NCBI GenBank assembly: GCA_964558935.1
Contig: CAZLFP010000002.1
Span: forward strand, 16,356 to 80,355
Direction of reading: 5' to 3'
From: an uncultured Gammaproteobacteria bacterium
GTDB lineage: Bacteria > Patescibacteriota > Patescibacteriia > 2-01-FULL-39-33
Length of the DNA stretch: 64,000 nucleotides
The translations under genes were made by a program, and so were the position numbers. The notes under the pieces were generated by a model. That model was not told the DNA's origin and did no database searches. It worked only from the letters and a program-made list of their open reading frames with translations. The stretch's first letter is position 1, and each line of letters opens with the position of its first letter. Shown here piece by piece: positions 19,191 to 45,382 of this stretch.

Positions 19191-19718
19191 ATGGCTCGAA
19201 ACCAGGGAGGCCAACCAGGCCAACAAACCAAGAAGGTGACCTGCAAAGGATGCGGTCGCCTCAATGAGGACGGTAATAAGTATTGCCCGTCCTGCGGCTG
19301 TGATCCAAAGTCCGGTAAGAAAGCCGGACCGACGAAAATCGAGTTCGAGATCGAGGTTACCTATAGTGGTGACTTTGGTCGCTACAACATCCGAGTCCAG
19401 GTCACCAAGAACGGCCAGGGTGAGGATGATGGAAAGGTATGGGTCAGCGGTTTTAAGCCGACTGACAAGGTGGTTGTTGGTTCAAATACCAACACATCCG
19501 GTGGGTGTCCCACCCACCTGGAACTGGATTTGGTCAAGGGCTTTACCACCTTTGACTATGAGTTTCAGGGTGGTAAACGTTTGCTTGAGTTTGCCGCCTG
19601 CGGTAACCAGGCTAACACCTATCTCAAGCTGCGTGGTCCCAAGTATACCTCGCAGCCTAACCAACGTTTTTGGCAGCGGTTGCGTGAGAGCATCCGCCAC
19701 AAACAAGGGAGAGATTAA
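19191..19718 (+). CDS. Hypothetical protein with N-terminal zinc ribbon (CKGCG-x10-CPSCGC) and beta-rich C-terminal domain (cassette gene 2)
   Basis: Strong SD TAGGAGGT lies 4 nt upstream of ATG. 175 aa. GC about 55-60%. Confidence 0.6.
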   Translation: MARNQGGQPGQQTKKVTCKGCGRLNEDGNKYCPSCGCDPKSGKKAGPTKIEFEIEVTYSGDFGRYNIRVQVTKNGQGEDDGKVWVSGFKPTDKVVVGSNTNTSGGCPTHLELDLVKGFTTFDYEFQGGKRLLEFAACGNQANTYLKLRGPKYTSQPNQRFWQRLRESIRHKQGRD

Positions 19719-19719
19719 C

Positions 19720-20412
19720 ATGTTTCTTTACTTCCTGCTGTTTGGGCTGGCCTGTTTGGCAGCCGTATTCTGTCTGGTTTGCCAGTGTATCTGGGGAGAC
19801 AGGCAGGAACCAGACGCGAATGGCCAGATCCGGATCTACAATCCGGGCATCGAGTTCCTTGCGTCGGTTCGAACCAATAATAACTGGTGGCCACTTCTGA
19901 CCCTGGTTATTCCAACCTTCTTTTGGGGAGCTTTTCTGGTCAGTGGTTTCGGCAGTCCCCCAATCACCACCACTGTGCGGGAAGCCTACGATTGGAGTTA
20001 CCAGCAGGCACAACCGCTGGGACAATCCAGTCGATTCAAGCGCACGGTGTTGGCTGTCGTGAGTGGCGGCAACACAGAATTGGAAGAGCTGCAAACTGAT
20101 ACCCAGCAAAAAAACTGGGTAGAACAGCTTGCACCTAAACCAATTCCCATTGTCTACCGGACCTGGTTTTGGTTTAAGGCGGCTCTGTTAACCAGCTTTC
20201 TCTGGTTGATGTTGTCGCCACTCTGCTTGGTTGACGAGCTGGTGATGGCCGCTAAAGAAGCGACCAAGCGCCAGACTGCGAAAGGAAAGGCGAAGGGTAG
20301 TTCCGGAGAGGCCGGAACAAGTTCCGGCGGATATAACATGACGTGGGACTGGATCGGTGATTTCGGTTCTGCGTTCTTTGGATACTGGTTGTCGTCGCTC
20401 AGTCGGCGATAA
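19720..20412 (+). CDS. Hypothetical polytopic membrane protein (cassette gene 3)
   Basis: ATG is 1 nt after the upstream stop (taaCatg) with GGGAGAG upstream. At least three hydrophobic helices. The ORF-track N-terminal extension from 19264 overlaps gene 2 and was rejected. Confidence 0.55.
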   Translation: MFLYFLLFGLACLAAVFCLVCQCIWGDRQEPDANGQIRIYNPGIEFLASVRTNNNWWPLLTLVIPTFFWGAFLVSGFGSPPITTTVREAYDWSYQQAQPLGQSSRFKRTVLAVVSGGNTELEELQTDTQQKNWVEQLAPKPIPIVYRTWFWFKAALLTSFLWLMLSPLCLVDELVMAAKEATKRQTAKGKAKGSSGEAGTSSGGYNMTWDWIGDFGSAFFGYWLSSLSRR

Positions 20413-20428
20413 AGCAAGGAGAACAGTT

Positions 20429-21277
20429 ATGGCTGATAACGAAGTCAAATTCTCTTTCGGAGTGAAAGAGATTATCGTCACGGTGGTGACCTTGGTGTTG
20501 GTGGTTTTGTTGGTTTCCGCCACCGTGGGAAATCACAAACTGGGCTTTTTGGCGGCATCGGTCGTGTTGAGCATCGTGCTCAACAAGTATCTGTTGTCTG
20601 TCGAGAAGCAGGGTACAGCCATCGGCAGGTGGCTAAAGCAAAACAAGGTTAAGGAGTGGTGTCTGTTTGGCATCATTCTGCTGATCTTGCTCTTCCTGTT
20701 TATCAGTACGCTGGCTATCGATCCGTTTGACATGCTCAGGCAGATCGGCAGTCAGCCTAATCAAGGACAAGCTGACAACCAGCGAATCACCTTTCTCTTG
20801 CTGGCAGTCATTGTCTTCGGCTGCATAAGCTATGAGATGATTTTTGCCAACAAGCACAAGAAGAAGTTTTGGTTCTTGTGCGCAGTATTGCTGGCGTTGA
20901 TGCTGCCCACCTACAGTCTGCCGACTCAGGAGGCTGTCAAGAGTGTAAAGCAGGTCAGCAGTCATGTAAATCATTGGGTTAAGGCAGAGTCGGCTGCTTT
21001 AAAACCTAAGCCTCAAGCTCCGAGGGGGCCACGCGTGGTCTGCCGTAAGGAGGTTGAGGTAAAACCGGGTGAAAATACGACCGATGTGCTGCTGACTCAA
21101 GGCCAGCTCATTCGGCACTATTTCACACCCACAACCCCCACGATTTCATGGGCACCGGACGGAGAACCGACCAAGCAAGGTCAGCTGTTCGGTCCGGTGA
21201 GTGGTACCTACTACCACAACATCCACGTAATAGATCAAAGGTCGGGTTCGGTCATCGTCGAGGTGATTGAGCCCTAA
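20429..21277 (+). CDS. Hypothetical polytopic membrane protein with C-terminal soluble domain (cassette gene 4)
   Basis: AAGGAGA SD lies 6 nt upstream of ATG (MADNEVKF). Five predicted TM helices followed by an approximately 100-aa hydrophilic tail. Confidence 0.55.
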   Translation: MADNEVKFSFGVKEIIVTVVTLVLVVLLVSATVGNHKLGFLAASVVLSIVLNKYLLSVEKQGTAIGRWLKQNKVKEWCLFGIILLILLFLFISTLAIDPFDMLRQIGSQPNQGQADNQRITFLLLAVIVFGCISYEMIFANKHKKKFWFLCAVLLALMLPTYSLPTQEAVKSVKQVSSHVNHWVKAESAALKPKPQAPRGPRVVCRKEVEVKPGENTTDVLLTQGQLIRHYFTPTTPTISWAPDGEPTKQGQLFGPVSGTYYHNIHVIDQRSGSVIVEVIEP

Positions 21278-21353: not shown

Positions 21354-21809
21354 ATGAATACTAAAATTATGCAAAAAATTATCATTTTCTTAATGCTATT
21401 TACAGCCTTGTTTTCACTGGCTGCTACTGTAAACGCGCAACCCGCCATGATGACAGCTGGTCCAGGTGGTGGTATCGGAGGAGGAAACACTCCACCCTTG
21501 GGCGGTGGTAACACTCCCCCAGCAGTTTCAGGTGGCGGCTCTGCTGTTGAATTGAGCAATCCTTTGAATAATGAAGGCAGTCTTGAAAAAACGGTTAATA
21601 ATATCATCACTTCAGTTTTGGGAATTACCGGTGTACTGGCTTTACTGGCTTTTATTTACGGCGGTGTACTTTGGATGATTTCATATGGAGACACGGCCAA
21701 AATTCAAAAAGGCAGAACCACCATGATTTGGGCAGTGGCCGGTCTGCTCATAATCTTCAGTGCCTACGCCATTATTAATTTGGTCTTTGACGCTTTGGGA
21801 GTACAGTAA
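21354..21809 (+). CDS. TrbC/VirB2-like (T4SS-type) pilin candidate
   Basis: Signal peptide ending AATVNA. Gly/Pro-rich linker. Two C-terminal TM helices separated by a short loop. 151 aa. Extended -10 TGGTATAAT upstream. Terminator downstream. Confidence 0.55.
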   Translation: MNTKIMQKIIIFLMLFTALFSLAATVNAQPAMMTAGPGGGIGGGNTPPLGGGNTPPAVSGGGSAVELSNPLNNEGSLEKTVNNIITSVLGITGVLALLAFIYGGVLWMISYGDTAKIQKGRTTMIWAVAGLLIIFSAYAIINLVFDALGVQ

Positions 21810-25683: not shown

Positions 25684-27027
25684 TTATATCACTGAACCCA
25701 GCAAAGGAATGGCCAATCTTTTTCTGAGAGTTTCGCCTGGCAATAGATTAATAGAGCGTTGCGTTTTGGTGCCTCTGTCATTCTGATGAGTAGCTTTGGT
25801 CATAGCCTCAAAGCTAGAGCCCATAAACAAAGTGTGCTTACCATAACGCTTAGACAGCTTATCTAAACTACCAAAGACAGTTTCCATTTTTTCAGCTTTT
25901 AAGACTTGTCCAAATAAATCCAATTGGTAGTCTTTCTGATCGGTTAGTCCCAGTAAGACAGCACCAGTGGCTCTGTATTCAATTTTAGGATTGTAAACGA
26001 ATTTAAAATATTTATCTACCAAATCTATAATTTCAGTCGGAATAATGGTAGCCCTGGATAGTTTAACTTCTAATCCATAATATCTGAAATCCTGACTCTT
26101 TAGGTAAAAGAAAAATTTAGTGGCAGCTAGTCCATGGCGCCTGGCTTTAATACAGGCATTTTCAATATTCTTAGACAATTGAGAAAAAACCATTTGTCTG
26201 GCACTAGAGGGTGGAGTAAAAGTTTTAGTTTTACTAATTGACTGATATTTATGTTTAGGTTTTTTATCTAACTCATACACTACCTTACCTCTTAGCTCCT
26301 GCCAAATCTCATAATGAGGTTTAGTCATTTTAGCTTTAACCCAATCTTCAGATTTGGTAGCAAACTCTAAAGTAGTGTTAATACCAAACTGTTTTAAGTA
26401 AGCACTGGTTTGAGGTCCAATGCCCCACACTTTATCTATGGGTAGTTTAGCTAAGAATTTATGAATGTCTCTACCTGGAATAGGAGTGTAACCAGAAGGC
26501 TTTTTCCATTTAGAAGCAATCTTAGCTAAAGATTTAGTTGGGGCTAAGCCTAAAGAAAAAGTAATGCCCAGTTCTTCATCTAAAGTGTATTTAATTTTGG
26601 CTGCTATTTGTTGGTAAGACATGTTAAGCGGACGCCTTAATCCGGTGAGTTCCGCAAAGCATTCATCAATACTGTATTCTTCTACAGCTGAAGTAAAACG
26701 TCTGACAATATTATACATGCGCATGGAAAACAAACTGTATTTCTCATAATCTGAAGGTAAAAAAACAGCCTCCGGGCAGATTTTTTTAACTTCAAATAAT
26801 CTCATTGCTCTGGTAATGCCCCTGGCCTTAGCCTCATAGCTCATAGAAGAGACAATGCCTCTTTCCATGCCGGTTACCACTGGTTTGCCTCTCAGTTTGG
26901 GATTAGTTGCAATTTCACAAGAGGCAAAAAAACAATCTCCATCTATGTGGATTATAGCTCTGGGATAATTGAATAAGTTTAAGGGTTGGGTCATAAGTTT
27001 AATATTTTCTGATAACAGCTTTGACAA
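25684..27027 (-). CDS. dinB: Y-family translesion DNA polymerase (DinB/UmuC-like)
   Basis: N-terminal IIHIDGDCFFASCE ... GKPVVTG catalytic motif. 447 aa. Overlaps the lexA stop, so they form an operon. Confidence 0.88.
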   Translation of the reverse strand: MSKLLSENIKLMTQPLNLFNYPRAIIHIDGDCFFASCEIATNPKLRGKPVVTGMERGIVSSMSYEAKARGITRAMRLFEVKKICPEAVFLPSDYEKYSLFSMRMYNIVRRFTSAVEEYSIDECFAELTGLRRPLNMSYQQIAAKIKYTLDEELGITFSLGLAPTKSLAKIASKWKKPSGYTPIPGRDIHKFLAKLPIDKVWGIGPQTSAYLKQFGINTTLEFATKSEDWVKAKMTKPHYEIWQELRGKVVYELDKKPKHKYQSISKTKTFTPPSSARQMVFSQLSKNIENACIKARRHGLAATKFFFYLKSQDFRYYGLEVKLSRATIIPTEIIDLVDKYFKFVYNPKIEYRATGAVLLGLTDQKDYQLDLFGQVLKAEKMETVFGSLDKLSKRYGKHTLFMGSSFEAMTKATHQNDRGTKTQRSINLLPGETLRKRLAIPLLGSVI

Positions 27028-27565
27028 TCGCAGTCACCTTTAATTCCGTATCCGGCATGATTGTCTTATATTTCTTATTAGCCGGAATTAAAAATATTTT
27101 GTTGTTTTCTTTTTTAAAATATTTCATGGTCCATTCACTATCTACTTCAGCAATGACAATATCTCCGTTCCTGGGTTCTAGCCCTCTCTCCACTAGGACT
27201 AGATCCCCAGGAACAATACCTGCCTCGATCATGGAATCGCCACTGACCTTTAGCATAAACGTGGCCTCTTGGTTATTAATTAAAAAATCATCTAAAGACA
27301 TGGTATCTGCTAATTCTTCTTCAGCGGCAGTAGGAAACCCAGCTTGAACAGTGCCTAAAATCTTAACACTCTCAGCTAAAGAATCAGGGATGAGCTTGCC
27401 ACTTTCATCTTTTCTCACAAATCCCTGGTCAACTAATTTATTAACTAGCTTAAAAACAGAATTCTTAGATTTAAAACTAAACAAGTCCATCATCTCCTGG
27501 TAACTAGGAAGGCGTCTGAACTTAGAATAGAATTTTCTAATTTTGTTTTTTTCTCTTTCGTTCAT
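26999..27565 (-). CDS. lexA: LexA repressor (wHTH plus S24 peptidase)
   Basis: 188 aa. N-terminal wHTH. Cleavage and catalytic region VQAGFPTAAEE ... KVSGDSMIEAGI ... with Ser/Lys dyad. Confidence 0.85.
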   Translation of the reverse strand: MNEREKNKIRKFYSKFRRLPSYQEMMDLFSFKSKNSVFKLVNKLVDQGFVRKDESGKLIPDSLAESVKILGTVQAGFPTAAEEELADTMSLDDFLINNQEATFMLKVSGDSMIEAGIVPGDLVLVERGLEPRNGDIVIAEVDSEWTMKYFKKENNKIFLIPANKKYKTIMPDTELKVTAIVKAVIRKY

Positions 27566-27577
27566 AATCTCAGTATA

Positions 27578-27593
27578 GTGAACGATTGTTCAC
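27578..27593. promoter_or_regulatory. LexA (Cheo-type) box GAAC-N4-GTTC in the lexA / SRAP divergent region
   Basis: gtGAACGATTGTTCac, 13 nt upstream of the lexA start. Palindromic. Confidence 0.65.
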
Positions 27594-27655
27594 CTGTCAA
27601 GTGGATAACTATCTTTGGTTTGTTTATCTTTAAAAATGTATTACAATATAGACAT

Positions 27656-28303
27656 ATGTGTGGAAGACTATCACTGGGAGTAACTAAAAAAGACTTGGAA
27701 AACTATTACAATTCCAAGCTGACTTTTAGTTTCAGACCGACTTACAATGCAGCTCCTTCTCAGACACTCCCTATTGTTAAAAACAATAATCCTAACAAGA
27801 TAGTACCTGCTACTTGGGGTTTTCTACCTGAGTGGATGCAAGATCAAAGACCAGCTGGATTCATAAATGCTAGGTCAGAAACTATCTTTGAAAAACCAGC
27901 TTTTAAAAAAGCTGCTAACTCACAAAGATGTTTAATACCAGCTGATGGTTTTTTTGAATGGAAGAAGATTGGAAACAGAAAACAACCATACTACATACAT
28001 TTAAAAGATAAAGGTATTTTTTCTTTGGCAGGACTCTGGGAATCTTTTAAAAAAGGATCTAAAGAAATATTAACTTTTACCATTCTGACAGTAGAACCTA
28101 ATTCTCTTATAAAAAAAATACATAACAGAATGCCTGTTATGTTAGACAAAAAACAAGAACAGATTTGGTTACAAGAAAATAACACATCTCAATTAAAAAA
28201 AATACTAGATCCCTTTAATTCTTTAAAGATGAAAGCTTATCCCATAAGTCTCTCAATAAACACTCCTGCTAACAATGACCCCAAGTATTTAGAACCAGTC
28301 TAA
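27656..28303 (+). CDS. SOS-response-associated peptidase (SRAP/YedK/HMCES family, DUF159)
   Basis: Starts MCGR (catalytic Cys2). Motifs PSQTLPIV, INARSET, PADGFFEWKK and HNRMPV. The ORF-track start at 27578 was trimmed to this ATG. Confidence 0.85.
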   Translation: MCGRLSLGVTKKDLENYYNSKLTFSFRPTYNAAPSQTLPIVKNNNPNKIVPATWGFLPEWMQDQRPAGFINARSETIFEKPAFKKAANSQRCLIPADGFFEWKKIGNRKQPYYIHLKDKGIFSLAGLWESFKKGSKEILTFTILTVEPNSLIKKIHNRMPVMLDKKQEQIWLQENNTSQLKKILDPFNSLKMKAYPISLSINTPANNDPKYLEPV

Positions 28304-28354: not shown

Positions 28355-28429
28355 GGGGGCGTAGCTCAGTTTGGTTAGAGCGCCTGCCTGTCACGCAGGA
28401 GGTCGAGGGTTCAAGTCCCTTCGTCCCCG
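28355..28429 (+). tRNA. tRNA-Asp (GUC)
   Basis: Cloverleaf read by hand. Acceptor GGGGGCG/CGTCCCC. Anticodon loop CTGTCAC. T-arm GGTTCAAGTCC. CCA not encoded. Confidence 0.88.
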
Positions 28430-28485
28430 CATTACAATGCAATATTAAACTCCCTGACAAGGGAGTTTTACTGTATAATAAAAAC

Positions 28486-28878
28486 ATGAAAAAGATAAAT
28501 AAAAAAATAAAAGACAGAACTGATAAGTGGATGTTGAGTAACGTGGTTAATGCTTGGGATAATCCCATTTTGTTTATATTTGTTATGGGCCTGAATCTAT
28601 TTTTTTGGTTTGATCAATTCGGTTCAAATTACTCAATTGTATTTTTATATTTCATTGGACTGATATCTTTATTATTAATACAATTAATAAAATTTAAAAT
28701 AATTCCATTAAATGAGTTGGCTCAAAGTAAAAGCAGGGTAAATGATATCATCTTGTATTTAATAATATTGCTTATGATTTATGGAGCAGTCTCGATTATC
28801 GTCTTGACTGTGATAGGTACAATGTTGGAACTAATGATTTTAATTGAATTGATAATGGATTTTAGAAGTATAGCTTAA
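28486..28878 (+). CDS. Hypothetical small membrane protein
   Basis: 130 aa, AT-rich, 3-4 TM helices. Confidence 0.45.
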   Translation: MKKINKKIKDRTDKWMLSNVVNAWDNPILFIFVMGLNLFFWFDQFGSNYSIVFLYFIGLISLLLIQLIKFKIIPLNELAQSKSRVNDIILYLIILLMIYGAVSIIVLTVIGTMLELMILIELIMDFRSIA

Positions 28879-28939
28879 TCTCTTGTTGGTCATCAAAGAA
28901 AACACCCCCGAAGCCTATCTTAGACTTCGGGGGTAAAGG

Positions 28940-30025
28940 TTACTTTTTGCCCAGGCGCTTCCAAGGCAACGGGCGTTGACGCTCGATGTGTTCGAGACGC
29001 CCGTAAATATCGTTCAGCTCTTGCTGAACGGTTGCTCCAGCAGCAGTCATAGCCGCTTCAGTCACCGCATTGGCTTGATCATGGACAGCCTGTTGGGCTG
29101 CCTGAGCCGATGTTGCAGCCGACTCTGCCGCAGCAGTCGAGGCGGCCAGCGAAGAGAAAGCTGTTCTCAAAGCCTTATCTTCGAAGTCGTTATTCTTGTC
29201 ATTGCAGAGCAAGTCCACCTCGCTCTCTCCATAGACTCCAGCCACTGCGGCCTCTTCGATAACCCTCACTCTGCCCATAATCTTGTCCAGCTCAGTCCGG
29301 GAGCGGGACTTATGGGTGTTCAAATCCGTTTGTACGGATTTGATGGACCTGGCATTGGCCTGGATGTCGGTGTAGAGGTCTGAGTAAACCTTGTCGATAC
29401 TGTCCAGGCTTCTAATGCCTGCTTGTAAGACATAGGTTTGGACCTCGGTAAATTTTTCCGTGTTAGCCAGGTCATTGATTTCCAGGTCAGTGGCTTCCGG
29501 ATAGGCAGCCTTGGCAAGAATCTTCTTGTCTTGCTTCAACTCACCCTGGACATCTAGCAGGTTCGAGTCCAGAACCTGGATCTGGTCTGCCGCATCCGTG
29601 AGTGTGATGGGGCACTCTTCCTGTTCGAAGTTCCAGAATTCTTTGAACTTGCCGCTGATATTGGCGGCCAGTTCACCGGCATCCTGGGCTTCTCTCGTCG
29701 CCGCCCTGGCCGTCTGGTTCGCTCGGTAGGTGAACCAAGCGGACACGAGAAGTCCGGCGATCAGCATGCACATTAGGACCCAGGCCAGACCAAGACTCAC
29801 TCCCAGCCTGTTGATCCGCCAAGACTCATTCGGTTGCGGTTGGGTATCATCTACCGCGTCGGCCGTCTTGTTGAGCTCAGAGATGTCTTTCTCTGTCTGC
29901 TTAATGGCCGTTGACACGGCCATCATTTCTTCCTGCTCTTCATCTGTCGGCTTCTCGATTGACTCGAGAGCCGCCAACTGCCCTTTCAGGCGTTGTAGAT
30001 CTGCCTGCAGTTCATCCAGGTTCAT
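28940..30025 (-). CDS. Hypothetical coiled-coil membrane protein encoded in a GC-rich (about 55%) segment
   Basis: 361 aa. N-terminal coiled coil. Single TM (LGVSLGLAWVLMCMLIAGLLVSAWF). Long extracytoplasmic coiled-coil and Ala-rich tail. Confidence 0.55.
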   Translation of the reverse strand: MNLDELQADLQRLKGQLAALESIEKPTDEEQEEMMAVSTAIKQTEKDISELNKTADAVDDTQPQPNESWRINRLGVSLGLAWVLMCMLIAGLLVSAWFTYRANQTARAATREAQDAGELAANISGKFKEFWNFEQEECPITLTDAADQIQVLDSNLLDVQGELKQDKKILAKAAYPEATDLEINDLANTEKFTEVQTYVLQAGIRSLDSIDKVYSDLYTDIQANARSIKSVQTDLNTHKSRSRTELDKIMGRVRVIEEAAVAGVYGESEVDLLCNDKNNDFEDKALRTAFSSLAASTAAAESAATSAQAAQQAVHDQANAVTEAAMTAAGATVQQELNDIYGRLEHIERQRPLPWKRLGKK

Positions 30026-30274
30026 TCTTTCTTCCTCCTCATTTTTCCCGGCAAGACTATCTTGCCAGGATTTTGTGGTTGTCAGTGAACATCAGCAAAC
30101 ACCATGTTTACCGAATATATTAGTGTATCATAAATATTCAAAAATGTCAATGTTTTGAAACAAAATTTGTTTAAATTTAGATAAATTATCTTTAACTCGA
30201 GAAGATTAATATTCTTCCTCTCTCTTTTGATATAAATATGGTATAATATATGCAAGAAAATATCTTTAATTAAT

Positions 30275-33200
30275 ATGGCTACTAAGCAAAAGTCAGAAAC
30301 CCCTGCTGCACAAGAACAGTTGTCAGCTCAAGAGGGAGGCGATTTATCTCAGATGAGATCAAGCACTCTTGGCATGTTGCAAGAAACGATAGCTGAAGCA
30401 GATCCCACCCATCAACATTTTGAGGATTTTACTGAAACTGATCTAGCTGGATTAGATGAGGATCAGTTAAGTGAGTTACAAGTATACTTTGAGGTGTTAC
30501 AAGATAAATTCAGCTCGGAAAACATAGATGAGCAACAGACTGAGTATATTGAACAGATTGTGGCGGCTCTGGCACAATTCTTACCTGAAAAACTGGTGCG
30601 AGAAAAGTGTCTGGATTATCGGGAAGTGGAAGAACCATCGGGTGAGGTTGAGTCTTCATCTGTGACAACTGCAGAACAACGGGAGCAAAAGACTCAACAG
30701 GCAGTTGAGTATTTTAAGTATTTATTTGATCAGGCGGTGCGAGATCATGACCTGACTACCGTTGAAGCCATTAAAGATTTCAATGCCGGTGATGGTACAC
30801 AGGAGGTGGGCGTGGATCTGATTTACAAACGAGTGTATGAAGAATACAAGCGAGCGGAGATGGATGACCAGAGTTTTGATGAACAAACCGAAACATATTT
30901 AATTAATCATATGAGAAGACTAATTGACCGCAGACCAGATCGTCAGCCAACAAAGCCAGAAACCGTAGAAGACAAAACACAAGAGCTGACTGATGCCCTG
31001 ATCACAGAATTTGAGCGTGAGGTCGAGCAATATAATTTGATGGAATATTCCAATCTGAAACAGTACATACAAAATAGAGAAGTTGCTTCTTTGACCAAGA
31101 GAATCTTAGAACAGCATGCTGATTGGCAGTTTAATAAAAACCAAGCTATAGATGATTTCCAAGAATATGTTGCAAGGTTTGTCAGCGAAATTAAAGATGG
31201 TCGTGAACAGGTAACAACAGCTGAAAATTCAGCTGAACAAGAGCAGAATGAAGTTGCAGAAGCAGTCGCTTACTTTCAAGAATTATTGGACTATTATGTA
31301 GAAAACAAAGTTTCCAACAAAATAGAATTTAATAGTTCAGTTATGCTTGGCTTAAGAGACAAGCTTAAAGATGATGTTTTGCATCGGTATGATTTAAAAG
31401 GTCAGGCTTTGGATGATTTTGATCAGCAAGTGCAAGCATATTACAAACAAGTTTTTGAGGCTTTACCTGATGAAGAAACAGATTCAGGATCTACTAAAGT
31501 TAATCCATTTAGAGATAAATTGAAAAGAATAAAAGAGCAAGAACAAAAACCACCGGCGGCAACTCCTGAACAAACACCACCGGCGGCAACTCCTGAAGCT
31601 CCAGATGAAACAAGTGTGAGTCCTCAAGAACAGCAGCCTCAAGAGCCAGAACCAGTTAAGGTTAAAGTTACAGATCGTAGAGCTGGTAATGTAGAAAGGC
31701 AAACAATAGTAAAGGAAGCTAACCAGCGTGAAATAAAAGAAACACAACCTGAAGAGCAAGATGATTTTTATCCTGCGGAAGCTGAAGCTCACGGTTGGGA
31801 ACCAGATGGTGAGCAACCCAAATCAATTACTCCAGAAGAAAGCGCTAAACCAATTGCCCCAGAAGTAAGCGCTGAGTTAGAAGTCAACCTAGAACAAGCC
31901 AGAATCGCCTATTACCAAGCTAGAATGCAAAACAAAAAACCGGCAGACTTAGAGCCTTTAAGACAAGCCTACGAAGCAGCTTTAAGAGTTAAGATTGAAG
32001 CTCAAGTGGATCGTGGCAATACAGAGTCAGCAATTGCAAATCAAATGTTGGAGGCATATCAACAGGAAGAAAAACAGATTGAAGAGCTATATGGAGAGCA
32101 TACCGGATCTTGGTGGGAAAAGAAACTGGCTTGGATTAATAAGCAGGCTGGTAAACGTATGGCTGTAGGTTTAAGCATGTTGGGTGCAAATACAGCTTTA
32201 TGGGGAGTAACTAAATTGGCGCCTGAGCTGTTATCTGCCGTACCGGTAGTTGGTACAGTAACAACTATTACTCGTATTCCTTTAAGCTTTTTAGGTGGAG
32301 TGGCATTAGCTGAAGGTTTAATGGCTAGATCATATGAAAGAGGTATAACCACAGATGTTTACAATAAGTTAAAGAAAAAACATTCCAAAGGCATTTTGTG
32401 GTGGCGGAAAACAGATCATGATGCGATAAAACAAGAAATTCCTGATGCTATCGGGAACATTGAGTTACCTGAATTGCAGAAGGAACTGTCTAAATTAAGA
32501 GTGATTGCCGAGCGCAAAGGCGGTAGACGGCAAGAGGTGTTTGGAGCGGGCTATTCGGATGTCGCTGAAGCTATCTACCAGAAAGCTATTGTGGAAATGG
32601 CAGCTCGTTTTACCAGGATGGAACAAGAGCAGCGCGATGATTCTCAAGAGGATGAACAGGTTAAGGCTCAGTTGCTAAACAGCATGTTAGACGACTACCT
32701 GGGTGATGTACATCTGGCAGAAGAAGCCGAGGGTCGCAAAGATAAAGCGGTTGCAAAAAGACGTATGGCCATCTCCCTAGCGGCTGGTACAGCTTTAGCC
32801 GCCTTTCCGGCTAATCGTTTAATTACCGGTTGGGGCGGAGCAGAAATCGCTGACGCCAGCGGTGTGGATTCTGAATTAATGGCTTATAATACTCCACCGG
32901 CAGTTGACACTCCGTCCGAATTAGACATGGCCCCAGATCAGACAGGTGTGGAAGCTTCTGTCGGGCCCAGAGATCTTGTATTACCAGCTGAACCGGATTT
33001 AACACTGGCTCAAGAGTTTGGTCAATCCCATGCTTTACTTGAAGCAACCGGAGCAGAAATTCAGGTTGAAGCGGGTGGCCCTATCCAAGTTACTTACGAG
33101 ATTGGAGCCGGCAAAGACTTTGCGCACTTAGACCAAGCCTTAAGAAGATTGGTCGTTCAAGAGTTCAATGTCGGACAGGATAATACTTTCAGTGCTCTTG

Positions 33201-34687
33201 AAGCCGGACAGGCTGAAAACGTTTTAGCTAATTTAAGAACTTTGTTGGAAGGTAATCCGGTAGCCGGTTTTAAACCCGAAGATATTAAGGGGGTGGTGAG
33301 TTATGCGGACGGTAAGCTGGTGGTACAGGATTACGAGCAATTTGAAGGCTTGTATGGTAAGTTGTTAGGCCATGCGCAAGAAATCATCACTGAAGAGTCA
33401 GGAGCTTTGGATCATATAAATGCTACCTCAGTTAAAAACTGGGAAAAGATGTTTGCTCTCAAAGATTCGGTCAACACTGCTGATGTAGATTTTAATAGCT
33501 TTGTGTCTGACGCTGGCCCAACCCAGCCCGGCATGTCCATGCCTCAGCCAGTAGATGGTGCTGCGCCTGAGCCAACTCCCTTGGCGATGAGTGAAGCAGC
33601 TGCTGTGCCAGAAGTAGGAGTCGAGGTGGAAATACCGACAGCTGAAACACCATCACCGGTAGAGGTTCAAATTGAACCAGACAGCATGTCTGAAACCGTG
33701 CCGGTTGAAACAAGTGGTTCACTTGACAGTTTGTATGCACCATCTGCGGAAGTACCTGCTGAATCAGTCGGGGAGGCTGCAGTTCTATCTGCAGAAAACA
33801 TGGATCACATAACTAGCGAGATGTTGGCTGACATGCAGACACCACAGAACGATATAACCCAGATGTTTCTAAACAATGAACTTGAGAAATTAAATGCCCA
33901 GGTTCAGGGTAAACTTCATGTTTTTAAAGAAATAACGGATGGTAAGCTTGCGATTACTTTAAGTATAGGAAATGAGCCGGTTGAAATGATAATCGATGGC
34001 TCATCTGTCGCTGATCTAAATGATCAATTTTCACCTGAGTTACAAAGTCAAGTTGCAACCATTGTTAAGAATATAGTTGAAGTTAAAGAAACCGCTGGAT
34101 TTGACAACGGAGAAGAAGCGTTGAAATTCATGAATTTGATTAGTGCCGTACAAGACACAGATGAAAGTCAGATGGCAGTTTTTTACCAAGGCGTAAAGTG
34201 TGAGCCAGTGGGTATATTAGCCAAGGAATATGTAGGTAGTTGGCTTCAAACAGCTAAGCAGCAAGAGATATTTGAACATTTGTTAGCTACATCTAAAGAA
34301 AATATTGATTACCAACAAATTGCCAATATTATCAAAGTCACAGGTAAAAGTGTTCTACCAGGCGGAGGAGAAGTCTTTTTGATGGAGAGTATAGTAGAGG
34401 GTACTACAGAGTCGTTAGAACCAATTTTGGGAGATTTAGTACATAGCGACACTACCGTACCGGTTGTTGACAATTTGCGTAACGTAACGATTGAAAATCT
34501 GGGTCCGCATAATTTAAAGCTGACTCTAGAGTATGGAATGCGAAGGCCACAAGCGATTATCGAATATATTCAAGGAGATAGATTGGTTAGAGAGCAATTT
34601 GATGTTTCCGGAACGTTTGGTAACAGTTTTGATAATGCTTTAGAATACATGCGAAATTTCGATCCCAAGGTAAGACTTGAATTGTAA
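30275..34687 (+). CDS. Giant (1470-aa) highly acidic hypothetical protein with central TM hairpin
   Basis: Uninterrupted ORF. Glu/Asp/Gln-rich. Tandem repeat PPAATPE(Q/A). Hydrophobic segment around residues 620-680. Extended -10 TGGTATAAT upstream. Confidence 0.7.
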   Translation: MATKQKSETPAAQEQLSAQEGGDLSQMRSSTLGMLQETIAEADPTHQHFEDFTETDLAGLDEDQLSELQVYFEVLQDKFSSENIDEQQTEYIEQIVAALAQFLPEKLVREKCLDYREVEEPSGEVESSSVTTAEQREQKTQQAVEYFKYLFDQAVRDHDLTTVEAIKDFNAGDGTQEVGVDLIYKRVYEEYKRAEMDDQSFDEQTETYLINHMRRLIDRRPDRQPTKPETVEDKTQELTDALITEFEREVEQYNLMEYSNLKQYIQNREVASLTKRILEQHADWQFNKNQAIDDFQEYVARFVSEIKDGREQVTTAENSAEQEQNEVAEAVAYFQELLDYYVENKVSNKIEFNSSVMLGLRDKLKDDVLHRYDLKGQALDDFDQQVQAYYKQVFEALPDEETDSGSTKVNPFRDKLKRIKEQEQKPPAATPEQTPPAATPEAPDETSVSPQEQQPQEPEPVKVKVTDRRAGNVERQTIVKEANQREIKETQPEEQDDFYPAEAEAHGWEPDGEQPKSITPEESAKPIAPEVSAELEVNLEQARIAYYQARMQNKKPADLEPLRQAYEAALRVKIEAQVDRGNTESAIANQMLEAYQQEEKQIEELYGEHTGSWWEKKLAWINKQAGKRMAVGLSMLGANTALWGVTKLAPELLSAVPVVGTVTTITRIPLSFLGGVALAEGLMARSYERGITTDVYNKLKKKHSKGILWWRKTDHDAIKQEIPDAIGNIELPELQKELSKLRVIAERKGGRRQEVFGAGYSDVAEAIYQKAIVEMAARFTRMEQEQRDDSQEDEQVKAQLLNSMLDDYLGDVHLAEEAEGRKDKAVAKRRMAISLAAGTALAAFPANRLITGWGGAEIADASGVDSELMAYNTPPAVDTPSELDMAPDQTGVEASVGPRDLVLPAEPDLTLAQEFGQSHALLEATGAEIQVEAGGPIQVTYEIGAGKDFAHLDQALRRLVVQEFNVGQDNTFSALEAGQAENVLANLRTLLEGNPVAGFKPEDIKGVVSYADGKLVVQDYEQFEGLYGKLLGHAQEIITEESGALDHINATSVKNWEKMFALKDSVNTADVDFNSFVSDAGPTQPGMSMPQPVDGAAPEPTPLAMSEAAAVPEVGVEVEIPTAETPSPVEVQIEPDSMSETVPVETSGSLDSLYAPSAEVPAESVGEAAVLSAENMDHITSEMLADMQTPQNDITQMFLNNELEKLNAQVQGKLHVFKEITDGKLAITLSIGNEPVEMIIDGSSVADLNDQFSPELQSQVATIVKNIVEVKETAGFDNGEEALKFMNLISAVQDTDESQMAVFYQGVKCEPVGILAKEYVGSWLQTAKQQEIFEHLLATSKENIDYQQIANIIKVTGKSVLPGGGEVFLMESIVEGTTESLEPILGDLVHSDTTVPVVDNLRNVTIENLGPHNLKLTLEYGMRRPQAIIEYIQGDRLVREQFDVSGTFGNSFDNALEYMRNFDPKVRLEL

Positions 34688-34717
34688 ATAGTGTTTAATT
34701 TAACCTAACTCAAACAT

Positions 34718-35038
34718 ATGAAATTAAAATTCCTAGCTGCCGATATCTTTGATCTGATGGGTATGAGTAATTTACCGGATGATCAAAAGATTGCCATGTT
34801 AACCAAAATGAATGCCATTGTCGGGCAAAGAATCATGTTCCGAGTCATGGATCAATTGTCTGAAGCAGACAATGAAGCTTTGGACAAATTAATTCAAGCA
34901 GAGGCCGGTCAAGATGAGATCAATAATTTCCTCAAAGGCAAAGTAGATCTGGAGATGATCATTACCGAGGAAATCACCCAGTTTAAACAGCAGCTCAGCC
35001 AAGACTTCAACGCTATTATCCAATCTGCCAAGCAGTAA
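34718..35038 (+). CDS. Hypothetical 106-aa protein
   Basis: ORF immediately downstream of the giant gene. Acidic and helical. No motif. Confidence 0.45.
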   Translation: MKLKFLAADIFDLMGMSNLPDDQKIAMLTKMNAIVGQRIMFRVMDQLSEADNEALDKLIQAEAGQDEINNFLKGKVDLEMIITEEITQFKQQLSQDFNAIIQSAKQ

Positions 35039-35086
35039 GATGAATCAAAAAACCACTCCGGCCAGGAGTGGTTTTGTAGTTGATGG

Positions 35087-35431
35087 TTATTTCAGTTTCT
35101 CAACAATTTGAGCAAAGACCTGAGGTTCTTTTTCTGCCAGTTGAGACAAGACTTTTCTGTCCAGCTCCACCTGGTTTTTCTTAAGTTTGTCTATGAATTG
35201 AGAATAACTCAAGCCGTGTTGTCTGACAGCAGCGTTTAATTTTGTCTGCCATAATCTTCTGTTGACTCTTTTTTTGGCTCTTCTGTCTCTTAAGGCATAA
35301 GCTCCGGCTTTGGTGGTGGCAGTCTTAGCCAACTTGATCAAATTCTTTCTGCCCCACTTGTAGCCCTTGGCCTGCTTTAAAATATTTTTTCTAGTTTTTG
35401 AATGGATTACGCCACGTTTAACTCTCGGCAT
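35087..35431 (-). CDS. rplT: 50S ribosomal protein L20
   Basis: 114 aa. Starts MPRVKRGV ... KRRLWIARINAA-like, basic. Confidence 0.95.
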   Translation of the reverse strand: MPRVKRGVIHSKTRKNILKQAKGYKWGRKNLIKLAKTATTKAGAYALRDRRAKKRVNRRLWQTKLNAAVRQHGLSYSQFIDKLKKNQVELDRKVLSQLAEKEPQVFAQIVEKLK

Positions 35432-35645: not shown

Positions 35646-36209
35646 TTACAGACTGATAACAGCAGACAATTTGTTACCTTGTTTTTTAACTGTCTGTTCT
35701 GTTTTAAGTTCTTTATCTTCAATTAAATTATTAATCTCTGAGATAAACCGGATAATTTGTTCTTCAGCCAGATCCGCATGCTGATTTTCTCTGCCTCTGA
35801 GTTGCATTTCAATCTTAACCTTGTGACCTTCTTGCAGAAATTTAAGAGCTTGTTTGCCTCTGAATTCTTGGTCATGCTGGGAAATTCTGGCAGATAGCTT
35901 AACCGTTTTGGTTTCGGTGGTTTTTTGTTTGGCTTTCTGTTTTCTTTCTTGTTTGTCTCGCTGGTATTTGAAACTGCCGTAGTCCATAATCTTACAAATT
36001 GGCGGCTGGCTTTTGGGTGAAACTTCGACTAAGTCCAAGTCTCTCTCACGAGCCAAAGCCAAAGCTTGGCGGACATTGACCACTCCCAGGCTTTCTCCTT
36101 GGTCATCGATTAACATGACTTGTTGAGCCAAGATTTTCTCGTTGGCTCTAAATTCTTTGTGGCTTTTGGATTGTTGTTGTTTTTTACGACCGCGAAAAGA
36201 TCTGCGCAT
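35646..36209 (-). CDS. infC: Translation initiation factor IF-3
   Basis: EKILAQQVMLIDDQGESLGV ... DLDLVEVSPKSQPPICKIMDYGSFKY. The ORF is open to 36287. The true start is probably at or after the internal ATG at 36209. IF-3 often uses non-ATG starts. Confidence 0.82.
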   Translation of the reverse strand: MRRSFRGRKKQQQSKSHKEFRANEKILAQQVMLIDDQGESLGVVNVRQALALARERDLDLVEVSPKSQPPICKIMDYGSFKYQRDKQERKQKAKQKTTETKTVKLSARISQHDQEFRGKQALKFLQEGHKVKIEMQLRGRENQHADLAEEQIIRFISEINNLIEDKELKTEQTVKKQGNKLSAVISL

Positions 36210-36620
36210 TAGCTGAATTATTAATCGGGTGGAGATGAGGAGTAATGAACTCCTGTCTGGCAATAAGCGAAGTAAATCAGTTGACAAGTTTTTGCTCTTT
36301 GAATGTTTTAAGCTACAACCTAACTAAAGAGCGAGATAGTCATAGCCGAAGTCTGTAAGTTTAAATAACTTACCCAGACTAAGCAAGTTACCGAGCCTAA
36401 GAATATGACACCGCTACCAACCATATAGGCCTAAGCTGGGCGATGGCTGTCAGCTTATTTAAGCAACAGCTGGTGCCAAAGCTAAACCGCTAAAAGCAGT
36501 TTTGACTCTAGCTAATAAGTTTTTTGCACTTATCTGGTGATGGTTTTTGACCTGGTTGCCAACAAACCGGACTTGCTGATTTACCTGTTATTCCCATCGA
36601 ATCATAACATCCCCAAGATA
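36210..36620 (-). promoter_or_regulatory. Long (about 400-nt), moderately GC-rich 5' UTR of the infC-rpmI-rplT operon; candidate L20-leader-type autoregulatory RNA
   Basis: No ORF in the segment. Position equivalent to the L20 leader of Firmicutes. Not verified by motif. Confidence 0.25.
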
Positions 36621-43985: not shown

Positions 43986-44642
43986 TTAGCTTTGAGGCTG
44001 TTTAGTCTTCTTTTCCTCCAGGAATTGGCGTCCCTTGCCCACATCCGTGTTGACCGGAGTGTTTGTCTGACACAGCGGGCACTCATCTGCCGACCAGCTC
44101 TTGATCTCTTGCTGAACCAAGCTGACAATCTTGGGCGGCTCGCCAACTTGTTCGTAGCCGGTTACATCCCGCTCCCAGAGTAGAGCCAGACCGGTAATGA
44201 TACCACCATGCTGTCTGCCCAGTTCCACCACTTGCTTGGCAGATTTGCCGGTAGTCATGATATCTTCCACCACCAGGATTCTCTGGTCTTTGATCCACTG
44301 GTCGTAACCGCGACGGATTTCAAAGCCACCTTCCTGATTCTTCTCAGCGTAGATCGCTTTGACTTGTCGTCCCGTAATCAGGGACAGATGCAGGGCAACA
44401 TACTGAGCCAGAATAATGCCACCCAAGGCCGGTCCCAAAACCGTGTTAATCTTGTCAGTGGCAAATTCCCAAGCCAGCAGACTGCACATGCCTGAGATAA
44501 CTCCGGGATCGGTGTAGACCGCATCCTTGTTAACATAGGTGTCACTGTGACGACCTGAGTTTAGGACAAAGTGACCTTGTCGCAAAGCTCCGGCTCGCTT
44601 GAAAAGATCCTTGATCTGTTCATGTGCTTGATGTCCCGGCAT
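43986..44642 (-). CDS. pyrE: Orotate phosphoribosyltransferase with C-terminal extension
   Basis: PRPP-binding motif ILVVEDIMTTGKS. 218 aa. GC-rich coding relative to the background. Confidence 0.85.
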   Translation of the reverse strand: MPGHQAHEQIKDLFKRAGALRQGHFVLNSGRHSDTYVNKDAVYTDPGVISGMCSLLAWEFATDKINTVLGPALGGIILAQYVALHLSLITGRQVKAIYAEKNQEGGFEIRRGYDQWIKDQRILVVEDIMTTGKSAKQVVELGRQHGGIITGLALLWERDVTGYEQVGEPPKIVSLVQQEIKSWSADECPLCQTNTPVNTDVGKGRQFLEEKKTKQPQS

Positions 44643-44644
44643 GA

Positions 44645-45382
44645 TTATTCTCCTCGTCCTGCCTGTGAGATTTCTTCGGCAATGCGTTTGGCCGCTTCCA
44701 CCGGTGAACCCATTTCCTCCGGCGGTTGGGTAATGGGTCGTCCAATGACCAAGTAATCTGCTCCGTCTTCAATCGCTTGCTCGGGAGTGGTGATTCTCTG
44801 CTGGTCATTGGAAGCTGCCCACTTGGGACGGATGCCCGGGGTAATGAATTCCAATTCCTGCAATTCCAGTTGCTGTCTAAGGAGTTTCAGTTCCTGCGGT
44901 GAACAGATAATGCCGTCACAACAGGCCGAGTCAGCATCGCGTGCCAACTGTAAAACCTTGGCCTTGCTGGGCGCTCCGAATATGAGGTGAGCCTGGTTTT
45001 CTTCCAGTGAAGTCAGGACCGTAACAGCCCAGATAAAGGTTGATTCTTGGAGCAACTTTGCGGTCTCGCTCGCTTGAACTGCTTGTTGCATAGCTTTGAT
45101 ACCGCAGGACGCATGGACATTTAAGGCATAGACGCCCAAATCAATTGCAGCTTGGGTAGCCGCTTTAACCGTATTGGGAATGTCACAGAACTTGCCGTCA
45201 TAGAAAACCTTGCCTCCGAGCTGGTGAACAGTTTCAACAACTTGAGGCGCTCCAAATTTGGTAATGGCTTCCAAGCCGATCTTGAACAGCCCGACCTGGT
45301 CATGTAATTGTTCGACCAGCTTTTTGAGCTGATCCAAATCGCTGACATCCAGAGCTACAATAATTCTGTCTTTGGGTTGCAT
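44645..45382 (-). CDS. pyrF: Orotidine-5'-phosphate decarboxylase
   Basis: DRIIVALDV ... LFKIGLE N-terminus, catalytic Asp/Lys region. 245 aa. GC-rich. Confidence 0.85.
   Translation of the reverse strand: MQPKDRIIVALDVSDLDQLKKLVEQLHDQVGLFKIGLEAITKFGAPQVVETVHQLGGKVFYDGKFCDIPNTVKAATQAAIDLGVYALNVHASCGIKAMQQAVQASETAKLLQESTFIWAVTVLTSLEENQAHLIFGAPSKAKVLQLARDADSACCDGIICSPQELKLLRQQLELQELEFITPGIRPKWAASNDQQRITTPEQAIEDGADYLVIGRPITQPPEEMGSPVEAAKRIAEEISQAGRGE

Follow-up and report, generated by a model that had tools for sequence, protein, structure and literature searches.

FtsN and RodZ are bitopic envelope scaffolds, and HubP and FimV are acidic polar hubs; these are the described proteins with which we compare p1470, a giant acidic membrane protein of 1470 residues encoded at 30275-34687 (+) in a 64,000-nucleotide (nt) stretch of contig CAZLFP010000002.1 from an uncultured member of the Patescibacteria, hereafter the window. 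p1470 would follow a logic like that of FtsN and RodZ, in which a cytoplasmic interaction region is joined to one or more anchors, a Pro-rich linker and a wall-facing globular domain, and may be like HubP and FimV in a single respect, the very large, very acidic, repeat-bearing cytoplasmic region found in these hubs too. The likeness would lie in how such proteins work and not in membership: no sequence or detected fold similarity links p1470 to any of the four, it has none of the SPOR, LysM, HTH and TPR domains of this comparison set, it has three hydrophobic segments instead of one, and it is predicted to sit in the membrane the other way round from HubP and FimV. A HubP/FimV-type hub was rejected as an identity on two grounds: p1470 contains no LysM or other Pfam domain, and its predicted orientation is the opposite one. 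A further point of comparison is the SPEARE protein of Nanohaloarchaeota, which we take to be a giant or hypervariable surface protein of an ultra-small symbiont.

Many large extracellular proteins, as well as a hypervariable surface protein, have been reported in candidate phyla radiation (CPR) genomes, and large unannotated envelope proteins are an already-known feature of such organisms (PMC6851277). The PTD-repeat surface protein of Gracilibacteria resembles p1470 in being a large, lineage-restricted and poorly annotated envelope protein, encoded in a reduced genome, and in having Pro/Thr-type repeats or stalks. It has one N-terminal transmembrane (TM) helix and is otherwise extracellular (PMC6851277), whereas p1470 has a predicted cytoplasmic part of ~630 residues, a conserved partner gene, and a repeat with two copies only. 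No homology of p1470 to Gracilibacteria or SPEARE-type surface proteins was detected.

We propose that p1470 and p106, a small protein encoded 30 nt further on (34718-35038, +), form a conserved Patescibacteria-specific module in which the giant would act as a wall- or surface-facing, envelope-spanning scaffold. We put the probability of this reading at roughly 0.5, its scaffold or wall-facing role being a hypothesis. An earlier interpretation made from the letters alone (the sequence-only reading) had placed three open reading frames (ORFs) correctly, p361 (28940-30025, -), p1470 and p106, but had treated the divergent p361-p1470 pair as the unit; comparison across loci places the conserved link elsewhere, between p1470 and p106.

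p1470 belongs to a hitherto undescribed group of related giant membrane proteins in Patescibacteria. An exhaustive HMMER (phmmer) search with residues 271-1470 as the query returned 63 cluster representatives at E <= 1e-3 (p1470 itself and 62 others), 43 at E <= 1e-10 and 7 at E <= 1e-30, the best non-self match having an E-value of 3.8e-44 and 43% identity. The family proteins range from 303 to 2432 residues, and the giant of the nearest syntenic relative, locus L001, has 1948. Members that carry a name are annotated as hypothetical proteins and come from metagenome-assembled genomes (MAGs) of Patescibacteria or Parcubacteria, apart from one named PrpC after an embedded PP2C domain. Word-index protein searches with p1470 and with a 43-sequence domain alignment gave only the query itself or nothing; as the index is blind to a family in which exhaustive HMMER finds 60 members, singleton status there does not amount to orphan status, and the description of p1470 as a giant ORFan does not survive the 62 non-self relatives.

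Common to 60 of these 62 relatives is a domain of ~163 residues (p1470 residues 910-1072, nt 33002-33490, +). It is marked by the motifs G.DF..LDQALRR and ENxLANLR...G..VAG...DY..F...WQEM, with Gly944, Asn982, Asn986 and Gly993 nearly invariant in the alignment. AlphaFold2, run on the 43-sequence alignment, models it as an alpha/beta domain with a predicted local distance difference test score (pLDDT) of 92.7 and a predicted template modelling score (pTM) of 0.87. The domain has no match in Pfam, NCBIfam or PHROGs, a profile of it found nothing among PDB sequences, Foldseek detected no similar fold in either PDB (best E 0.54, TM-score ~0.2) or BFVD, and profiles of the central membrane module and of the DUF5663 set (both described below) found nothing significant in PDB. 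No phage or viral relatives of the domain were found and no viral contig encodes any; plasmid, phage and viral searches likewise returned no relatives.

Around this domain, p1470 is built of several distinct regions. Its isoelectric point is 4.47, with 18.1% Glu and Asp versus 9.3% Lys and Arg, in keeping with its first description as an acidic protein. The N-terminal acidic helical region (residues 1-~440, +) is lineage-specific: neither it nor its repeats match any of the other 62 family proteins. It holds an internal duplication of residues 134-240 and 321-421 (nt 30674-31537; 26.6% identity over 109 residues, E 4.6e-6 by self-BLAST). The Pro/Glu/Gln-rich linker that follows (residues ~440-535, +) carries the tandem PPAATPE repeat that had been noticed in the sequence; the repeat exists, but as just two copies of a 27-nt unit coding (K/T)PPAATPE (31541-31594, +; 96% identical).

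The central membrane module (residues 537-860, nt 31883-32854, +) consists of a helical segment, a Gly/Ala-rich hydrophobic hairpin (residues 629-686, nt 32159-32332), a K/R-flanked loop of ~140 residues containing ALAERKG.R..EVFG as its motif, and the third of the hydrophobic segments (residues 831-851, nt 32765-32827). The sequence-only reading had located the hairpin, but the stretch is weak (maximum Kyte-Doolittle value 1.44) and the third segment had been missed. The module is shared at full length with P0045, the giant of L001, and with P0059, and in part with P0019, P0035 and P0018. On the far side of the conserved domain lie an acidic Pro-rich stalk (residues ~1075-1190, +) and, from a weak profile match and AlphaFold2, a candidate C-terminal alpha+beta module (residues ~1327-1465, nt 34253-34669, +). 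The latter aligns collinearly with a C-terminal module of ~140 residues in 13 members, scoring 12-14 bits (E-values from 1e-4 to 1e-3 with 62 proteins as the search space), and is probably homologous to it; AlphaFold2 gives the last ~140 residues a pLDDT of 72-95, and no PDB fold match was found for the module.

The topology of p1470 was approached through its homologues. By Pfam scan of 31 full-length homologues, a PP2C phosphatase occupies residues 373-596 of P0012, N-terminal to the hydrophobic segment of that protein, and P0036 has a YkuD L,D-transpeptidase domain at its extreme C-terminus; a cytoplasmic enzyme at one end and a peptidoglycan enzyme at the other fit an N-in, C-out arrangement. 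Across the 60 members with the conserved domain, 59 have no hydrophobic segment after it and 50 have at least one before it. In p1470 the last hydrophobic segment and the domain are 60 residues apart, with a linker rich in Pro, Thr, Ser and Glu before the domain, and no signal-like segment is present at the N-terminus. The hairpin of the L001 homologue lies above the usual TM threshold, a Kyte-Doolittle value of 1.6. Taken together, the domain fusions and hydrophobicity suggest that p1470 is oriented N-in, C-out.

p106 is acidic and helical and has no hydrophobic segment. All three proteins had been described as lacking recognisable motifs, a statement that fails for p1470, with its conserved domain, and for p106, which the profiles place as a divergent member of the DUF5663 family. 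Against DUF5663 (PF18908) p106 scores 17.7 bits (E 0.005), covering 78 of the 84 profile positions, and against a profile of four DUF5663-like giant neighbours, from which the window had been left out, it reaches E 6.3e-8; it is 44% identical to the neighbour of the giant in L001. Precomputed PF18908 matches mark the giant neighbours in L018, L021 and L022. Other than this match, searches of Pfam, NCBIfam, PHROGs and PDB sequences with p361, p1470 and p106 yielded noise-level hits only. From the 30-nt gap, p106 is predicted to be co-transcribed with p1470.

To see which genes keep company with the giants, 14 distinct loci were compared: the window, L001, L018-L023, L028, L030, L031 and L034-L036. 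A DUF5663-like gene of ~105-115 codons adjoins the giant in eight of them (the window, L001, L018, L021, L022, L023/24, L030 and L034), and no DUF5663-like ORF occurs elsewhere in the ~0.5 Mb of sequence examined. Two further loci have a different gene of ~105 codons in its place, upstream of the giant (L031 1668-1985; L036 2447-2776); this second partner type has the motif LPKMSLEQ(L/I)D, accompanies one giant subfamily and is not detected by the DUF5663 profile. Directly upstream of the giant, 7 of the 14 loci also have homologous helical ORFs of ~60 residues (54-72; pairwise E down to 1e-9), placed between the ~105-residue partner and the giant where such a partner is present: L019 4799-4990, L021 4834-4998, L022 1587-1766, L030 541-723, L034 479-667, L035 2807-2992 and L036 2778-2996. 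This ~60-residue partner is absent from the window and L001. Of the 14 loci, 12 have one or more small helical partner genes beside the giant; L020 and L028/29 have none. Other neighbours of the giants vary between loci and are housekeeping genes, and a p361-like gene stands alongside a giant in the window and L001 only. Since the DUF5663-like gene is adjacent in 8 of 14 loci, we take p1470 and p106, and not the divergent pair, as the conserved unit. The papers searched make no mention of DUF5663, and the family, its conserved domain and its linkage to DUF5663 all appear to be undescribed.

In the mechanism that we propose, ~630 acidic, helical and fast-diverging residues of p1470 would lie in the cytoplasm, and the chain would cross the membrane by way of the Gly/Ala-rich hairpin together with the third hydrophobic segment. 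Outside the cell would be the final ~600 residues, comprising Pro/Glu-rich stalks, the membrane-proximal domain of ~163 residues and the second, C-terminal module. p106 would serve as a small cytosolic partner of the DUF5663 type, and p1470 as an envelope-spanning scaffold that ties an acidic cytoplasmic platform to the wall or the surface of the cell. The module does not include p361, which would be an N-terminally anchored helical surface protein in a variable slot between rplT and tRNA-Asp.

Several observations weigh against this reading. The hydrophobic segments of p1470 are weak, with Kyte-Doolittle values of 1.0-1.44, and the fusions that point to its topology come from two homologues out of 31 scanned. 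p106 falls below the Pfam gathering cut-off for DUF5663 (17.7 versus 23.7 bits), as does its L001 orthologue (18.6 bits), and in the window its gene comes after the giant, whereas the partner is upstream in every other DUF5663-bearing locus. In the giants P0045 (L001) and P0059 the central module is combined with an outer domain other than the conserved one, so the family is mosaic and a single function for all its members is an assumption; any function assigned to a member is a hypothesis.

Patescibacteria account for much of bacterial diversity, yet annotation is lacking for most of their envelope proteins. An apparent orphan becomes a defined family of at least 60 sequence clusters, with a confidently modelled domain that has no detectable analogue and holds a fixed position relative to the membrane; DUF5663 gains a genomic context where it previously had none; and experimenters with cultivable Patescibacteria are offered a two- or three-gene module. 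More tentatively, in a form that we think would sooner fail than hold, the giant, its DUF5663 partner and often the ~60-residue protein would constitute an undescribed envelope system found only in Patescibacteria, with an outward-facing domain of new fold, and, separately, the tRNA-Asp slot would be a hot spot for surface genes rich in GC at third codon positions (GC3). Such an envelope system could act as a landmark or hub coupling cytoplasmic machinery to the wall or to a cell-cell contact site of these ultra-small episymbionts, and the GC3 richness of the slot genes may be kept by recurrent exchange or biased gene conversion. The recurrent GC3-rich gene beside tRNA-Asp is a small but clean example in which to ask how reduced, AT-rich genomes retain surface genes that are foreign or exchange fast.

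The composition of p361 sets it apart from p1470 and p106. The contrast had been noticed from the sequence and is indeed unusual: p361 has a GC content of 54.1% (GC1 0.60, GC2 0.39, GC3 0.63), compared with a GC3 of ~0.32-0.48 for most window genes, and p1470 shows the native pattern (42.6%; GC1 0.59, GC2 0.36, GC3 0.33). The GC-rich block is sharply bounded (~28900-30100) by flanks of 18-31% GC. Relative to 11 background genes, p361 favours CTG for Leu (0.44 versus 0.18), AAG for Lys (0.71 versus 0.31) and ATC for Ile (0.72 versus 0.25), and avoids TTA for Leu (0.03 versus 0.33). Because codon usage is shifted for most amino acids, whereas p1470 follows the background, the GC contrast is not due to amino-acid content.

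p361 is acidic, with a helical N-terminal part of 70 residues, a single TM helix (residues 71-101, Kyte-Doolittle 2.49) and a helix-rich C-terminal region of 260 residues, rich in Ala, Gln and Thr, which is probably outside the cell. The one TM helix and the Ala-rich composition (14% Ala) had been read correctly. The coiled coil was not borne out: matches to coiled-coil families are sub-threshold, as are all family matches of p361, which are of a kind usual for helical proteins of low complexity, and a crude heptad score is not above that of shuffled sequences, so we call the protein helix-rich. An EzrA or Rz-type spanin identity was rejected, the spanin PHROG match having an E-value of 0.023 and the L001 analogue reaching 18.9 bits for EzrA against a cut-off of 39.6. 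On the minus strand, p361 has a ribosome-binding site (GAGGAGG) before its ATG, a promoter-like site at 30150-30122 (TTGACA-17-TACACT with TG) and, between the two, a leader hairpin at 30050-30066 with a perfect 7-bp stem (GGCAAGACTATCTTGCC); a 15-pair hairpin terminator (28903-28935, -) follows its stop codon directly and lies between the convergent p130 and p361. Such signals of its own point to p361 as a separate unit. The divergent intergenic region (30026-30274) also contains a putative extended -10 element for p1470 (TGGTATAAT) near 30238-30246 (+); all promoter sites there, found by reading the sequence and scanning for consensus, are consensus matches only. Judged by these predicted signals and its codon usage, p361, a membrane-anchored helical protein of foreign codon usage, is transcribed on its own and stands apart from p1470 and p106.

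In a 5.8-billion-protein word-index search p361 matched only itself. Genes of similar build occupy the same position in two related genomes, L001 (17674-18654) and L005 (12506-13267). The L001 analogue, of 375 residues, is divergent from the DUF5663-giant pair and has a basic RPKRK stretch before its TM helix, which argues for an N-in, C-out orientation; L005 has two p361-like genes (253 and 334 residues) and no giant. All three genomes with a slot gene show a GC3 excess of ~0.23-0.26, although the proteins are barely alignable: 0.63 for p361 versus an own-genome background of ~0.40, 0.74 versus ~0.48 for the L001 gene, and 0.65 versus ~0.40 for the 253-residue gene of L005. GroEL, rplT and infC show no such GC3 richness, so expression bias does not account for it; the cause may be that genes were gained repeatedly at a hot spot, or that some lasting process raises their GC.

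These features bear on a first alternative, that p361, and possibly the whole 6.6-kb stretch from tRNA-Asp to rplT, is mobile-element cargo brought in by horizontal transfer, which we regard as a real but minority possibility. rplT directly adjoins tRNA-Asp in L007 and L008, leaving an empty site, and large serine recombinases (Resolvase, Recombinase and Zn-ribbon domains) sit beside or overlap tRNA-Asp in L005 (14016-15545) and L007 (11230-12930), from which we conclude that the tRNA serves for integration in this lineage and that the slot is variable. The sharply bounded, foreign-looking p361 block fits as well, as do its weak PHROG matches to tape-measure proteins (E 1.5e-4) and, weaker still, to the spanin already mentioned. 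The window itself, however, lacks an integrase, neither a direct repeat of the tRNA 3' end nor another att-type repeat lies around tRNA-Asp, p361 and the conserved domain have no relatives in phage records or viral contigs, and none of 31 giants and 7 DUF5663-like proteins matches any PHROG. Atypical composition is confined to p361, the codon usage of p1470 and p106 being native, and a giant adjoins rplT-rpmI-infC-smpB both in L001 and in the distant family member P0029 (L036), so the giant-rplT link is probably old. p361 alone looks recently acquired or otherwise compositionally driven; transfer would explain its origin at most, and not the p1470/p106 module.

Also unlikely, if with some claim on our credence, is that p1470 is a host-interaction adhesin whose exposed C-terminal region contacts the host of an episymbiotic cell, a view that overlaps with a scaffold. 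The sequence-only reading had pointed to host-interaction or surface machinery; a surface or envelope role is plausible, whereas nothing found is specific to host interaction. An adhesin would agree with the restriction of the family to Patescibacteria, with an N-terminal region of 440 residues that is unmatched even in the nearest syntenic relative, with the last ~285 residues, which have no full-length family match (residues 1327-1420 weakly match the 13-member module), with Pro-rich stalks of the kind typical of exposed proteins, and with the large extracellular and hypervariable surface proteins reported for CPR genomes (PMC6851277). Yet neither p1470 nor the 31 homologues contain an adhesin, Ig-like, lectin or toxin domain, and it is the membrane-proximal domain that is conserved. 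The ~630 predicted cytoplasmic residues and the cytosolic partner are not needed by a pure adhesin, and the YkuD wall enzyme in one homologue points to the organism's own wall.

We consider it very improbable that p1470 acts as a polymorphic toxin, or an effector, whose C-terminal domain varies and whose immunity protein is p106. Termini that vary around a conserved core, enzymatic C-terminal domains in a few homologues and a small gene immediately downstream in the window would suit such a pair, but p106 comes from a conserved family whose genes precede the giant in every other locus with DUF5663, 13 members apparently share the C-terminal module of p1470, no toxin domain was detected in p1470 or the 31 homologues, and there are no secretion-system genes nearby.

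The giants and their neighbours also recall a phage tape measure: a small acidic gene of ~105 codons and one of ~60 precede a giant helical protein with Gly-rich hydrophobic segments, and one giant homologue has a wall-active enzyme domain. Unlike tape-measure loci, they have no tail genes nearby and their neighbours are housekeeping genes (here rplT, infC and a tRNA), and no viral contigs encode relatives; a tape measure with chaperones was rejected, with no PHROG match for p1470, 31 homologues or 7 partners. Finally, a frameshift fusion or non-coding sequence is refuted for p1470, and a chance ORF is very improbable for p361: although GC-rich DNA gives long spurious ORFs and overlapping ORFs of 135 and 142 residues are present, each relative of p1470 is one ORF, similar in size and with its modules in the same order, the codon-position GC pattern of p1470 is that of a real gene, p361 has its own codon-position pattern (GC1 0.60, GC2 0.39, GC3 0.63), strong ribosome-binding site, promoter-like site and terminator, and Rfam has no match in the region of these genes.

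The slot that holds these genes is bounded by tRNA-Asp (GTC; 28355-28430, +; ARAGORN and Rfam) and by rplT (35087-35431, -). Wedged between the tRNA and the GC-rich p361 is p130 (28486-28878, +), a small ORFan of 26.5% GC with 3-4 hydrophobic segments, a singleton cluster without any Pfam family above threshold, which lies outside the conserved module. At the other end, a hairpin between the convergent p106 and rplT (35040-35084) is a likely bidirectional terminator. Past rplT come infC, the transfer-messenger RNA (tmRNA) gene (36227-36614, -) and smpB; IF3, as encoded here, shares no more than 65% identity with sequences from MAGs labelled "Patescibacteria group" or Candidatus Buchananbacteria, which places the genome near the latter, as an unsampled member of the CPR. 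The ORF given for infC (35646-36287), a long one that begins with TTG, overlaps the tmRNA gene, so the true infC start must lie further downstream, possibly at a non-standard start codon.

Before tRNA-Asp, an AT-rich SOS-type trio (25684-28303) encodes a Y-family polymerase (IMS), an S24 LexA-like peptidase and an SRAP peptidase, and L002 has a LexA-like gene after rplT. Further upstream, a second GC-rich island of ORFans (19191-21277; GC 0.51-0.52) contains a 175-residue protein with CxxC...CxxC motifs and a 306-residue multi-TM protein, neither with a Pfam match, and its codon bias (CTG, AAG, ATC) is that of p361. Adjoining it, a 151-residue protein (21354-21809) matches T4SS_pilin/TrbC (PF18895, E 1e-9); clusters of this family flank the giants in L019 and L035. 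A pyrE-like gene and pyrF (OMPdecase, E 9e-49) at 43986-45382 (-) have a GC content of 50-52%, share the foreign codon usage of p361 and were probably acquired horizontally.

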